DNA of 15,471 nt. It comes from a virus. Lineage: Duplodnaviria > Heunggongvirae > Uroviricota > Caudoviricetes. The stretch lies in IMG/VR virus record IMGVR_UViG_2563366885_000004, one strand, 5' to 3'. The position numbers and the translations under genes were made by a program. Within the stretch, counting starts at the first letter, position 1. Each line of letters opens with the position of its first letter. The notes beneath the pieces are model-generated. The model saw nothing but the letters and a program-made list of their open reading frames with translations, ran no database searches and was not told the DNA's origin. Positions 2,792-10,865 of this stretch are shown here, one piece after another.

Positions 2792-3322
2792 TTACTGCAC
2801 ATCCTGCTCAAAAGGAATTATTGAAAAATCCTCAATATCACTTTTTATGGTAATACCGGGAATATTTTTCACGGCGTCCTTTTCATTCAGGATAGCGTCT
2901 TTATTTATTTCCTCTTTTACACGAATAAAGCGCTCAAGCCCCAGACGTCTCAGTAATTCAATAACATTATCCGCCCCACGGATACTGACTGATGGCGGAC
3001 GGTTTCGTCACTGCACCTCGCCGGTGGTGAGGTTAGCGAACTTCACCTTCCCGTTGCCGGTCAGTTCATCACGGTGTGCCTCACACCATGTCTGAATACC
3101 GGACTGCAGTTCGGCCATGCGTTTTTTCAGGCTCTCGGTGAGCGGGGCATAACGTGCGGTGATATCGCCAATGGCGTCATTCATTTCTGTTTCAGCCCTG
3201 ACCAGTTCACGTTGTGCGTCACCGAGTAGTCTGATTCCCTCAATGACCTCTTCACGTGTCCCCGGCACCCAGAGTGCTGCTGCGGCCTTGATACGTTTTG
3301 CACCTTTTGTACTTTTTGCCAT
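2792..3322 (-). pseudogene. gam: Mu Gam-like host-nuclease inhibitor interrupted by one in-frame TGA at 3008..3010
   Basis: Translation of 3008..3322 closely matches the Mu Gam N-terminus (MAK..KRIKAAAA...ETEMNDAI...WCEA.RDELT). The same frame continues after the TGA (RNRPPSVSIRG ... GITIKSDIEDFSIIPFEQ) and matches the Mu Gam C-terminus to a TAA at 2792..2794. The TGA aligns with a Trp in Mu Gam as I recall it. Confidence 0.75.
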
Positions 3323-7493: not shown

Positions 7494-7802
7494 TTATAAA
7501 CGACTACCTGAAATGACACGTTGGTTGATTTCGTTAATACGATCCTGCGCTCGTGCCATCTCGTTACTGTGAGCCATGGCGATCTGCAGTAACTGGATGC
7601 CCGGTGCAAAACGTCCATTCTCCAGTTTCAGGGCCAGCCCTTCTTCAATGAGGGTGTTGAGTGCCCGATTAATGTTTGCTGGTGACTCGTGCAGTGCTGC
7701 CGCCAGTTCACCGTTGGAGATACCGTTCAGAGCGTGGCCACGTAACGCCTTAAGAACACGCAAAATACGGGTACCTGCGCTTGATGTATTTGGTTTATTC
7801 AT
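7494..7802 (-). CDS. Small winged-HTH protein (IclR/MarR-like DNA-binding domain only, 102 aa)
   Basis: RILRVLKALRG...ISNGELAAAL..SPANINRALNTLIEEGLA resembles an IclR-type N-terminal wHTH. ATGA overlap with the ner-like stop. Confidence 0.5.
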   Translation of the reverse strand: MNKPNTSSAGTRILRVLKALRGHALNGISNGELAAALHESPANINRALNTLIEEGLALKLENGRFAPGIQLLQIAMAHSNEMARAQDRINEINQRVISGSRL

Positions 7803-8023
7803 GACACCTCCTTAAGGATACCGGGGGTAACTTCTTTACCTATTGCAACCGATAGATCTCGCAAAATCCGATAAGTCAAACGACCACGTGGTAGTTCACT
7901 TTTACCAGCCCAGCGACTGACTGCCTGTGTGACTGTTCGTGGCTCATAGCCTGCGTTAAGCGCGAACTGGCGCAAGCTACTGCCTCGTTCAACTAGTCGT
8001 GCCCGAACTTGTTGTTTATTCAT
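7799..8023 (-). CDS. ner: Ner-like DNA-binding protein (early negative regulator)
   Basis: 74 aa (Mu Ner is 75 aa). Core SLRQFALNAGYEPRTVTQAVSRW resembles Mu Ner LSALSRQFGYAPTTLANALERHW (from memory). First gene of the early operon, divergent from the repressor. Confidence 0.7.
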   Translation of the reverse strand: MNKQQVRARLVERGSSLRQFALNAGYEPRTVTQAVSRWAGKSELPRGRLTYRILRDLSVAIGKEVTPGILKEVS

Positions 8024-8111
8024 ATGCGGATAGTTCCAGTTGGGTTATCATGTACTCAATATGAATAAATGTACTTATTCAAAATAAATAAATCAAGTGG
8101 AATTACGCAAA
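8024..8111. promoter_or_regulatory. Divergent early/repressor control region with operator-like repeats
   Basis: 88-bp AT-rich spacer between the divergent ner-like and repressor genes. Inverted repeat TGAATAA-N6-TTATTCA at 8062..8081 and direct repeats TGTACTcAAT / TGTACTtATT at 8051..8060 and 8070..8079. Leftward candidate promoter TTGATT-17-TACATT on the minus strand. Confidence 0.5.
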
Positions 8112-8528
8112 ATGAATAACAAAGATGTTAACGCTGTGCTTTCCCGGTTAATGTCACTATTCCAAGCAGAGAATGATAGTGAGTTGGCAAGAGCGCTTAA
8201 CGTCAATAGGCAGACACTTGCAAGTTGGAGGAAGCGTGATTCTGTGCCTTATGCAATTTGCATAAACATCGCAGAAGAAAAGGGGGTTTCTTTAGATTGG
8301 TTGCTAACAGGTAGAAAACAAGGTTTATCAAAAGAAGTAGACGTAACTCCGACGCAAGTGCAGTTTAGCCAAGCTGACCTTACTATGCTTGAGCTTTTAA
8401 AGCAGCTAGACCCCGAGGTTCGTAACGATCTTCTGCGAGGCGCTGCGGAAAAACAGCGAGTGATCGAGATGGAAAAACAACTGAAGGAATTATCCGCAAC
8501 GATTGAGCGGTTAAAAAATGTGGGTTAA
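8112..8528 (+). CDS. Prophage repressor, CI-type HTH without a peptidase domain
   Basis: LARALNVNRQTLASWRKRDSVPYAICINIAEEKGVSLDWLLTG matches the phage CI-repressor HTH pattern. No S24 peptidase motifs. Divergent from the early operon. Track start is GTG 8097; ATG 8112 is an alternative. Confidence 0.75.
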   Translation: MNNKDVNAVLSRLMSLFQAENDSELARALNVNRQTLASWRKRDSVPYAICINIAEEKGVSLDWLLTGRKQGLSKEVDVTPTQVQFSQADLTMLELLKQLDPEVRNDLLRGAAEKQRVIEMEKQLKELSATIERLKNVG

Positions 8529-8650
8529 TCTATTCCCAATGAGAACAATTGACAAGGTTATCAAACCTCTTCGTTATATGCGCTGATTTAAACAGTAGGA
8601 TGTGCTGTTTGCACTAACCATCTGAACTTTCCGCGTTAAGGATTAATCGT

Positions 8651-9544
8651 ATGAGTGGTGATGTGAGAAATTATCGTATTGAGTTTCATCAGCTATCGTT
8701 TAAGGCCACAGATCAGCTGGCAAATCTCGGAGATGCTTTTCAATCTGTAATTGATAAACAGAGCCCTTCCTCTTCAAACCATGAGGGTTTTACTAGAGAA
8801 ATTTGGGGGTTGAAAAAACGCGCGGATGGTTCTTTTAGTGGAGAGTTGAGAAAATTTCGCAACTCGAACATTCCGGATAAAGGTGCACCAGGGAAACAGT
8901 CTACCCCTATTCCACTTGCCAAGGATGAAGGGATCATTGAGCGCAATTTCTTTGTATTCTATCCTCGAATCAATGTTATAGGTTGGCACTATAATCATAT
9001 GGCTTGTGGTATAAGCCGTTTTAGTGCATTTCTTTCAACTATCTTTGGTTCAAAGGTTAAGCCCGCACCTTTGCTGGAAAAAGATGCAATCGCTAGGCTT
9101 ATGAGAGGAGATGTCAAAATGAAAAAAATCCAGTTGACGATTCCTCGCCCCCGTAATCCTGAGTTTTACCCTGATACTGATTTCAGTCAAAAGACACTAC
9201 AACTGCTTGGTGATGCAGGTGCCGATACAATGCAAATTGTAATGGGGATTAATACTCGCCGTGGCGATAGTGATGGTAGGCTTAAGCAGAATATAAAATT
9301 TGCTATGCAAGAGTTAGTCGAGTTTGGGGCGAAAAAGGCTGTAATTGATGTGTTCGATGCTGATGGTGTTGTCCATCCTGTGGATTTGATTGCCGAGCGT
9401 ATTTCGTCCTATCAATCGGTAGTTACTGACGCTCGTTTCCCTCCAGCCGAAACCATGTACCGTCTAATCGATACTGCGTATGCTGAAAACCGGGAGAGTA
9501 TCAATGCATATATTGGAGAAGATGAACTCGGCCCTATTGCTTAG
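8651..9544 (+). CDS. Soluble 297-aa protein, candidate RexA-like component of a repressor-linked exclusion module
   Basis: AAGGA RBS upstream of ATG at 8651, same strand as and downstream of the repressor. Segment FFVFYPRINVIGW...ISRFSAFL...RLMRGDV resembles lambda RexA FLFVEGDTIGF...LTDFL...PLMRGTT, quoted from memory and unverified. Confidence 0.45.
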   Translation: MSGDVRNYRIEFHQLSFKATDQLANLGDAFQSVIDKQSPSSSNHEGFTREIWGLKKRADGSFSGELRKFRNSNIPDKGAPGKQSTPIPLAKDEGIIERNFFVFYPRINVIGWHYNHMACGISRFSAFLSTIFGSKVKPAPLLEKDAIARLMRGDVKMKKIQLTIPRPRNPEFYPDTDFSQKTLQLLGDAGADTMQIVMGINTRRGDSDGRLKQNIKFAMQELVEFGAKKAVIDVFDADGVVHPVDLIAERISSYQSVVTDARFPPAETMYRLIDTAYAENRESINAYIGEDELGPIA

Positions 9545-9941
9545 TTTATTGATTGGATGTGGGATTGGTTTTCTCTACTGGTTCAAGTTGCCCCATATGC
9601 CAGTAGCCGCAATCCCAAACTTCATGACTACATTGTCCAGTGTCTTTGCAACGTTGTTAGGTTTTATTATTACAGCAATTGCACTACTTGCATCATTGCT
9701 TGATAAACCGTTACTTAAAAACATGCAAAAAACCGGACATTACAAGCGTCTGATGACCGATGCATTCTACACTTGCTTAGTTTTGCTAGTGTTGGTGTTG
9801 ACATGTTTGATTGGGTTGATGCTGCAAAGTAAGCATCAAGAGATTGTAGCCGCTATTCTCATTGGGCTTGTTGTTATGTCTATGTTGTGTTTATTACAAA
9901 CAGGTAGGCGATTATTCAATATAATCAAAGTGATATCATAA
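9504..9941 (+). CDS. Four-TM membrane protein (about 145 aa), candidate RexB-like effector
   Basis: Four hydrophobic segments. Start at ATG 9504 (GGGAGAG RBS) overlaps the upstream gene's 3' end, indicating coupling. TTLSSVFATLLGFIITAIALL resembles lambda RexB ATLSSYAGTMIAILIAAL, from memory. Size is close to RexB (144 aa). Confidence 0.45.
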   Translation: MHILEKMNSALLLSLLIGCGIGFLYWFKLPHMPVAAIPNFMTTLSSVFATLLGFIITAIALLASLLDKPLLKNMQKTGHYKRLMTDAFYTCLVLLVLVLTCLIGLMLQSKHQEIVAAILIGLVVMSMLCLLQTGRRLFNIIKVIS

Positions 9942-9964
9942 CAATGCACCATCAGGTGCATTGT
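9941..9964. terminator. Perfect 10-bp stem / 4-nt loop hairpin between the convergent membrane-protein and dam genes
   Basis: ACAATGCACC-atca-GGTGCATTGT begins at the stop codon of the membrane-protein gene. No strong U-tract on the plus strand; moderately T-rich tail on the minus strand. Confidence 0.4.
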
Positions 9965-9993
9965 TATGCAAGACTACTTACCTCCTTCTGAGC

Positions 9994-10761
9994 CTACTCT
10001 AAATTACTTACAATAAGTTCGCGCCGTAGTGTTCCCTTTCCTGCAAGACTGTAGTTGACCTTCACACAGTGAATGTTCAGACCGTTAAAAACCTGCCGCA
10101 TTTCCGGGATATCGTTGACCGATATAATCATCTTTCCTCTGATGCACCGGGCCAGCTCTGCCAGCCGCGAGTAGTTCCCTTCAGGAAAATCCACACCATA
10201 GCCTTCCGTACCCAGGTACGGTGGGTCGCAGTAGAACAGCGTGTGCGGACGATCATAACGCTCAATGCACTGTTGCCAGTCCATGTGTTCTATGACTGTT
10301 CTGGAAAGCCGCAGGTGTGCCGCTGACAGTTCTTCTTCAATACGCAGCAGGTTGAAGCGTGGCGGGGATGTGGTGGAGGTACCGAAGCTGTGCTCTGCCA
10401 CCTTGCCGCCAAACGCCTGCTTCTGAAGGTAGTAAAACCGTGCCGCACGCTGGATATCCGTCAGTGTTTCTTCCGGGGTGATCTGCAGCCATTTGTAGAT
10501 CTGACGGCTGACCAGCGCCCATTTGAACTGGCGGACAAATTCTTCCAGGTGATGCTTTACCACCCGGTACAGATTCACCAGTTCACCGTTGATATCATTG
10601 ATGACTTCGATCTTGCCGGGTGTCTTAAGAAAATAGAGCGCTGCTGCCCCACAAAACGGCTCCACATAACATTCATGCGCCGGAAACAGCGGCAGAATGT
10701 GTTTTGCAAGGCGGCGTTTGCCACCAATCCACGGCACGATGGGTAATGTCTGCATTTTCAT
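9994..10761 (-). CDS. dam: DNA N6-adenine methyltransferase (Dam-like, DPPY motif)
   Basis: IVPWIGGKRRL N-terminus, FCGAAALYF (motif I-like) and FYCDPPYLGTEGY (DPPY catalytic motif). Track ORF extends to 10851, but the Dam-like N-terminus begins at the Met codons at 10761/10755. Confidence 0.85.
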   Translation of the reverse strand: MKMQTLPIVPWIGGKRRLAKHILPLFPAHECYVEPFCGAAALYFLKTPGKIEVINDINGELVNLYRVVKHHLEEFVRQFKWALVSRQIYKWLQITPEETLTDIQRAARFYYLQKQAFGGKVAEHSFGTSTTSPPRFNLLRIEEELSAAHLRLSRTVIEHMDWQQCIERYDRPHTLFYCDPPYLGTEGYGVDFPEGNYSRLAELARCIRGKMIISVNDIPEMRQVFNGLNIHCVKVNYSLAGKGTLRRELIVSNLE

Positions 10762-10865
10762 AATCTGTAAGCCTTTTACAATTATTAAAAAATATGGCAG
10801 TCTGGTCAGGTCTCGCGAGACTGACTGAACCTTGGTCGGCTCACAGCGCATTCCTGTGGGGCGAT

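Follow-up and report, generated by a model that had tools for sequence, protein, structure and literature searches.

RexAB-like systems that escape the Rex domains of Pfam have already been found and validated. One of them, Sucellos (SclA/SclB, VCA0367-0368 of Vibrio cholerae), is structurally RexAB-like, is unmatched by the Pfam Rex domains and consists of two genes, both of which are required; its SclB component is a predicted membrane pore, and the outcome is abortive infection (Darracq et al., bioRxiv 10.1101/2024.07.02.601686; Science 2025). The BLASTP homologues of Sucellos lie mainly in enterobacterial prophages, often in Salmonella (bioRxiv 10.1101/2024.07.02.601686), and the system is now routinely reported in papers based on DefenseFinder. 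RexABpp (PP_5643/PP_5644) of the Pseudomonas putida prophage P1 is likewise a validated RexAB-like system without Pfam Rex matches (PMC12894663). The Rex-like pairs of actinobacteriophages (Sbash gp30/31, CarolAnn gp44/43, Toast gp42), which BLAST searches of the actinobacteriophage database brought to light, are prophage-expressed two-gene exclusion systems, several of them with a synteny resembling cI-rexA-rexB; their RexA homologues form dimers and bind DNA non-specifically (PMC11077077). Here we analyse a stretch of 15,471 nucleotides (nt) from the virus record IMGVR_UViG_2563366885_000004, referred to as the window, which stems from a Mu-like transposable prophage and carries two overlapping genes, A and B, directly after the prophage repressor. 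We think it likely that A and B constitute a two-component abortive-infection or exclusion module of the RexAB type, which the prophage has in its immunity region as an accessory load. An original prediction, made from the letters of the DNA alone, had proposed such a RexA/RexB-like two-gene module behind the repressor of a Mu-like prophage; it is now backed by the predicted RexA fold of A, the topology of B, the obligate pairing of the two genes and the synteny of cI, A and B. The two genes are the following, with protein lengths in amino acids (aa), TM for transmembrane and ORF for open reading frame:

8651-9544, + strand: gene A, encoding a soluble protein of 297 aa that belongs to the DUF6731 family and has a predicted RexA-like fold; the proposed sensor and DNA-binding subunit
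9504-9941, + strand: gene B, a 145-aa four-TM membrane protein and the proposed RexB-like effector; alternative start ATG at 9522, ORF open from 9480, overlap with A of 41 nt

The protein encoded by gene A, which is preceded at a distance of 8 nt by the ribosome-binding site AAGGA, contains no hydrophobic segments. Its AlphaFold2 model, built with an alignment of 122 sequences, is confident (predicted local distance difference test, pLDDT, 92.5; predicted template-modelling score, pTM, 0.84). When this model was compared by Foldseek with 350,542 chains of the Protein Data Bank (PDB), lambda RexA (8TWQ_B) came out first, with an E-value of 1.6e-7 and a probability of 1.00. RexA, to which A has a sequence identity of 13%, was also the top match in the PDB by a second, independent fold-search method, 4.5 Z units ahead of the next one, so that the comparison with the lambda RexA structure that had been suggested along with the original prediction gave the same best match by two methods. 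In the model, seven strands and accompanying helices in residues 4-140 are followed by a four-stranded alpha/beta insert (144-245), after which the first domain is resumed (252-288). This order of elements agrees with the published domain plan of RexA, in which the four-stranded alpha/beta domain is the dimerisation domain (PMC11077077). The predicted fold of A is that of RexA: a globular domain with seven strands, divided in two by an alpha/beta domain with four. RdgC (PDB 2OWL) and the kinetochore proteins CENP-N/Chl4 share this fold, RdgC being the fold relative that the authors of the RexA crystal structure reported (PMC11077077).

At the level of sequence, A itself falls below the reporting threshold for the Pfam family DUF6731 (PF20505). 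Its homologues at E-values of 1e-61 to 1e-146 do carry PF20505, as do 112 of the 122 aligned relatives, and by these sequence relationships A belongs to the DUF6731 family. According to a profile search (E-value up to 1e-3), the family of A comprises no fewer than 1,051 clusters when sequences are grouped at 50% identity, almost all of about 290 aa, and it is represented in enterobacteria as well as in Pseudomonas, Vibrio, Halomonas and uncultured lineages. Among PHROG families, A matches phrog_7651, of unknown function, and no mention of DUF6731 was found in the literature searched.

For gene B, the best start is the ATG at 9504, which is preceded by the ribosome-binding site GGGAGAG and yields the 145-aa form that most gene callers, largely metagenomic ones, give for its homologues; the RefSeq/PGAP start at 9597 leads to a protein of 114 aa that has lost TM1. 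Hydropathy analysis and the AlphaFold secondary structure agree on four long helices, with TM segments at about 1-23, 34-65, 76-105 and 105-129 in the numbering of a 139-aa form, so that the four-TM topology and the length of about 145 aa first ascribed to this protein both hold. The loop between TM2 and TM3 carries five lysine or arginine residues in B as well as in RexB, and the C-terminus of B is basic. In its size, the number and spacing of its TM segments and its positive-inside pattern, B is thus topologically RexB-like. On the cytoplasmic side, the B family is further marked by two sharply conserved motifs: TM2 is followed by NMxKTGH[Y/F] and TM4 by GRRF. The PHROG match of B, phrog_8552, is of unknown function.

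A direct BLASTP comparison of B with lambda RexB was not significant. In profile-profile alignments with hhalign, 20 B sequences matched the RexB family with a P-value of 0.0042, and 49-51 diverse B sequences matched it (13 sequences) with a probability of 30% and a P-value of 5.5e-4 over 56-61 collinear columns, the match gaining in strength with the greater diversity of the B sequences. The match depended on orientation: reversing either profile, that of B or that of RexB, gave P-values of 0.03-0.08, and reversing both brought the signal back (P-value 4.2e-4). An independent, divergent B clade taken alone also aligned with the same region of RexB (P-value 0.004). The aligned block comprises the first periplasmic loop, TM2 and the TM2-TM3 loop and contains the tetrapeptide TLSS, to which the original prediction had drawn attention; TLSS is indeed present at residues 45-48 of RexB and lies in register in every BLASTP and hhalign alignment. 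This weak but orientation-specific profile match suggests remote homology between B and RexB.

Loci were gathered from GenBank phages and IMG/VR as well as from species genomes, metagenomes and assembly look-ups. An ORF of the B family follows A immediately, on the same strand and in most cases with an overlap, in 72 of 73 loci, even where the identity of A has dropped to about 20%; in the one remaining locus the contig stops 69 nt past A. The same adjacency is seen in Pseudomonas phage AUS531phi, in the Vibrio element PE001 and on an Escherichia coli plasmid (locus L103). A and B are an obligate pair across the family.

Related loci lie mostly in prophages. In 51 non-redundant loci, the two closest genes on either flank belong most often to Pfam families typical of prophage accessory sites, namely Q antiterminators (10), DUF968 (7), Peptidase_S24 (4), phage integrases (4) and N6_Mtase (3). 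The exact lambda-style arrangement of Cro, a divergent CI with an S24 domain, A and B is found in two loci (L036/L037) and in AUS531phi. One type I restriction-modification operon contains a distant pair, with about 23% identity in A, between hsdR and hsdM/hsdS; a Peptidase_M78 gene lies upstream (L010-L012, 639-5774). Of 5,426 complete E. coli genomes, 73 harbour a divergent, Vibrio-like clade of the family in lambdoid prophages, where it separates the gene for the Q antiterminator from that for the lambda-family holin; this is the site that stx occupies in Stx phages. This clade includes the pair on the E. coli plasmid pHNAH212872-2 (L103, 3429-4841), where A has 313 aa and about 19% identity to A of the window (hidden Markov model E-value 1e-39) and B has 149 aa and no KTGH motif; the clade is 34% identical to its homologue in a Vinavirales element of V. 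cyclitrophicus. An enterobacterial clade at 45% identity (L020) is absent from the complete E. coli genomes. In a related Mu-like prophage of Serratia nevei (L004, 3964-7282), A and B, at 80% identity, are found on the far side of dam, and the place after the repressor is taken by a 143-aa, zinc-ribbon-like ORF with a single TM segment.

The 2 kb at positions 8000-10000 of the window recur with 99.9-100% identity in 23 of the 5,426 complete E. coli genomes. Related Mu-like prophages were found in 635 E. coli genomes, only about 23-25 of which have the pair, leaving about 610 without it; in both pair-less relatives that were examined, dam directly follows the repressor. Most related E. coli Mu-like prophages thus do without the pair, which is expendable, mobile cargo found at the usual accessory sites of prophages, a pattern characteristic of defence modules.

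The element that hosts the pair in the window is a Mu/BcepMu-like transposable prophage of E. coli, adjoined by nagE in NZ_CP069500. Its leftward early operon encodes a Ner-like helix-turn-helix (HTH) protein, a second HTH protein, DUF3102, an rve transposase, an ExeA/MuB-like ATPase, Gam and Mor, and its right arm contains dam, lysis genes, a Mu-type portal gene and head and tail genes. In the immunity region between the two arms, a Ner/Cro-like gene on the minus strand faces a CI-type repressor gene on the plus strand, which is followed by A and B. The features that surround the pair are:

7799-8023, - strand: small Ner/Cro-like HTH gene (74 aa) with which the leftward early operon starts (phrog_8503, E-value 1.1e-34; weak HTH_35)
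8024-8111, no strand assigned: AT-rich stretch from the Ner-like gene to the repressor, the presumed operator/promoter region, judged by its sequence and a position analogous to lambda OR (cro/cI)
8112-8528, + strand: CI-type prophage repressor, 138 aa from the ATG at 8112, which is also the PGAP start; the ORF opens with GTG at 8097 (PF07022, Phage_CI_repr, E-value 1.2e-17; repressor PHROGs)
8529-8650, + strand: spacer of 122 nt between repressor and A, containing TTGACA at 8549-8554; neither a plus-strand promoter nor a terminator in a consensus scan
9937-9968, no strand assigned: perfect hairpin with a 14-bp stem between the convergent genes B and dam (RNAfold, -22.4 kcal/mol for 9931-10000)

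The repressor, A and B have a GC content of 38-43%, compared with about 54% in both prophage arms, and the two related E. coli prophages that were examined carry a different repressor allele and neither A nor B. For both reasons the immunity region and the pair look like a single acquired block. The combination of such a pair with a transposable phage had been called unusual; the Mu-like host is confirmed, but with the family present in many types of prophage the pairing is only mildly so. Three further observations concern the flanking genes. The HTH ORF at 7799-8023 is unannotated in RefSeq NZ_CP069500, and related prophages carry a 'DNA-binding protein' at that position. In the RefSeq record whose sequence is 100% identical to 8000-10000 of the window, the gene for Gam, a host-nuclease inhibitor (about 2792-3322, minus strand), is marked as a pseudogene that contains an internal stop, so the prophage may be partly defective. 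The dam methylase ORF (9994-10851, minus strand) can be read as 285 aa and is annotated in RefSeq with 255 aa; it matches the PADLOC model of a type II methyltransferase (E-value 1.4e-112), and no restriction partner was seen nearby.

The TTGACA hexamer in the spacer had been put forward as the -35 element of a promoter belonging to the cassette itself. The hexamer is there, but at a distance of 16-18 nt from it no acceptable -10 element was found, the best candidate having three of six matches; the scan returned no plus-strand site, and in a relative of 94% identity (L014) the hexamer is replaced by TCGACG. With neither a promoter nor a terminator in the spacer and with the hexamer unconserved, read-through from the repressor promoter would be the likeliest source of transcription, and the idea of a separate promoter at about 8549 is not sustained. 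The pair is found downstream of a repressor not only in the window, where the scan placed no terminator between repressor and A, but also in L036/L037, in L008 and in phage AUS531phi; genes that are expressed in lysogens occupy such a position. At the other end of the pair, the hairpin at 9937-9968 is followed by a U-tract on neither strand, and the terminator scan made no call there; judging by its sequence, it is a possible bidirectional terminator or mRNA end.

If A and B work as lambda RexAB, RexABpp and Sucellos do, the pair would be co-transcribed with the repressor in the lysogen. A would then act as a sensor, dimeric and binding DNA without specificity, which a product or a DNA intermediate of a superinfecting phage switches on. 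Once active, A would make oligomers of B open or permeabilise the inner membrane in which they lie. The ensuing loss of membrane potential and ATP would stop the growth of the infected cell and thereby abort the infection.

Several results weigh against this RexAB-type reading. Neither A nor any of its 122 relatives matches the Pfam RexA family (PF15969), and neither B nor 20 of its relatives match the Pfam RexB family (PF15968), at E-values up to 10 in both cases; genuine RexB relatives all carry PF15968. NCBIfam and PADLOC, whose models include Rex, were likewise without a match for A, B or their relatives. A BLASTP comparison of A with lambda RexA was not significant, and a sequence search of the PDB with the A profile did not retrieve 8TWQ; the weak matches to eIF2-alpha that it returned (E-value 0.012) were judged to be due to chance. 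When the A family was aligned with three RexA sequences by hhalign, the alignments were collinear over 145-179 columns but not significant (P-value 0.02-0.035, probability 1.5-3%; reversed controls, P-value 0.1-0.18), and the homology of A to RexA therefore rests on structure. Nor can the short likeness between RLMRGDV in A and PLMRGTT in RexA, noted in the original prediction, be leaned on as a homologous site: RLMRG and PLMRG are really present in the two proteins, the latter at residues 136-140 of RexA, but hhalign pairs PLMRG with PLLEK of A, nine residues upstream and thus out of register. On the structural side, the whole-chain TM-scores between A and RexA are low (0.36-0.38), probably owing to a flexible hinge between the two domains. 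The model of B is poor (pLDDT 60), a consequence of the shallow alignment used, and a search of the viral structures in BFVD with it gave nothing at E-values of 0.001 or below and no RexB, which at this model quality is uninformative rather than negative. Small four-TM proteins are, moreover, easily over-matched. Finally, lambda RexA has a role in the lysis-lysogeny decision that is independent of RexB, so that defence need not be the sole function of a pair of this kind (PMC11077077).

This last point leads to an alternative in which the pair serves the lysis-lysogeny decision of the prophage itself, with A acting on the repressor/Ner switch and B modulating or anchoring A. The predicted RexA fold of A and the place of the pair directly after the repressor in the immunity region would both suit such a task, and a regulatory role has precedent: in the absence of RexB, lambda RexA shifts the bistable switch in favour of lysis, and its DNA binding tracks that role, not exclusion (PMC11077077). 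However, the pair also occurs far from repressors, beside Q antiterminators and holins, beside integrases and within a type I restriction-modification operon; the roughly 610 related E. coli prophages get by without it, the two examined ones keeping their repressor/Ner region with dam behind it; and the strict coupling of A to B points to a joint, membrane-linked function. We therefore regard this alternative as unlikely, while a lysis-lysogeny role and a defence role are not mutually exclusive. That the likeness of fold is convergent or generic, and that the pair has an unrelated housekeeping or prophage-maintenance role, for example as an addiction module resembling a toxin-antitoxin system, would fit the 13% identity to RexA, the profile comparisons that fell short of significance and the sharing of the fold with RdgC and CENP-N/Chl4. 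Against this, RexA leads the next match by 4.5 Z units, and the partner gene, the gene order, the sizes and the cI-linked synteny independently agree with rexAB, which makes a merely generic resemblance very improbable in our judgement.

Two further alternatives look to the envelope. Small polytopic membrane proteins of prophages often act at DNA injection, and B, a small polytopic inner-membrane protein encoded in a prophage immunity region, might exclude superinfecting phages by blocking DNA entry, a receptor or transport in the manner of SieA or Imm, with A as a cytoplasmic accessory and without death of the cell. Injection blockers, though, do not normally need a cytoplasmic partner of 300 aa with a DNA-clamp-like RexA/RdgC fold, and the structural analogues that have been studied, Sucellos and RexABpp, arrest or lyse infected cells; non-abortive exclusion of this kind thus appears quite unlikely. 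The parts list, a small multi-TM protein and a soluble protein of about 300 aa that, from its model, probably binds DNA, is also reminiscent of Kiwa, where a KwaA-like membrane sensor of phage attachment would release a KwaB-like DNA-binding effector that blocks replication or late transcription without killing. We found no PADLOC match to it at E-values up to 1, no Pfam DUF4868 and no KwaB among the matches listed (the top 50-60 PDB folds), and rejected this explanation as the least probable of those considered. The reading of A and B as a RexAB-type module is accordingly the one that we retain.

On that reading, DUF6731 and its unnamed membrane partner, both of which are 'hypothetical protein' in RefSeq, receive a label at the level of function, and Mu-like transposable prophages of E. 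coli can carry a module of the RexAB type, predicted to be expressed in the lysogen, at the junction between repressor and dam. Modules of this type shape the phage host range in clinical lineages of E. coli and Salmonella.

Compared with the described systems, the DUF6731 and four-TM family fits the description of Sucellos, and it has a Vibrio-like clade that is represented in 73 E. coli genomes and in an element of V. cyclitrophicus. Judged by that published description, the family fairly likely includes Sucellos. Were the two the same, the pair of the window would be a distant branch, about 19-24% identical to the Vibrio-like clade, whose B has no KTGH motif. A cluster look-up of ten family representatives gave only 'DUF6731 family protein' and unnamed entries. 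The opposite view, that DUF6731 and its four-TM partner form a separate and very large RexAB-like abortive-infection branch, distinct from Sucellos and RexABpp and beyond the reach of current defence-finding tools, with the NMxKTGH[Y/F] loop and the GRRF tail of B as the docking site for a RexA-fold DNA clamp, is one that we entertain only tentatively and consider rather doubtful. In either case the type of module is a known one. How lambda RexA activates RexB has remained unsolved for decades, and a separate branch, if that is what it is, would provide a tractable, high-confidence model system for this question. With a confident model of A, diverse variants and sharply conserved motifs in B, the family is suited to the study of how a RexA-fold sensor signals to a membrane effector.

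RdgC (2OWL) and CENP-N/Chl4/Iml3 differ from the pair in having no membrane partner and a different biology, and they score lower against A than RexA does. The actinobacteriophage Rex-like pairs are likened to A and B by description, and their hosts are Actinobacteria, unlike that of the window. From lambda RexA/RexB (PF15969/PF15968; PDB 8TWQ), A and B are separated by the absence of similarity at the level of hidden Markov models, with 13% identity in the case of A. The genes rexA and rexB lie 15 nt apart in lambda, whereas A and B overlap by 41 nt, and lambda RexB has neither NMxKTGH[Y/F] nor GRRF, both of which are present in B. The two membrane proteins are in the same length class, with 145 aa in B and 144 aa in lambda RexB, and have four TM helices each. 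The phage that carries lambda Rex is lambdoid; the host of A and B is a Mu-like transposable phage.

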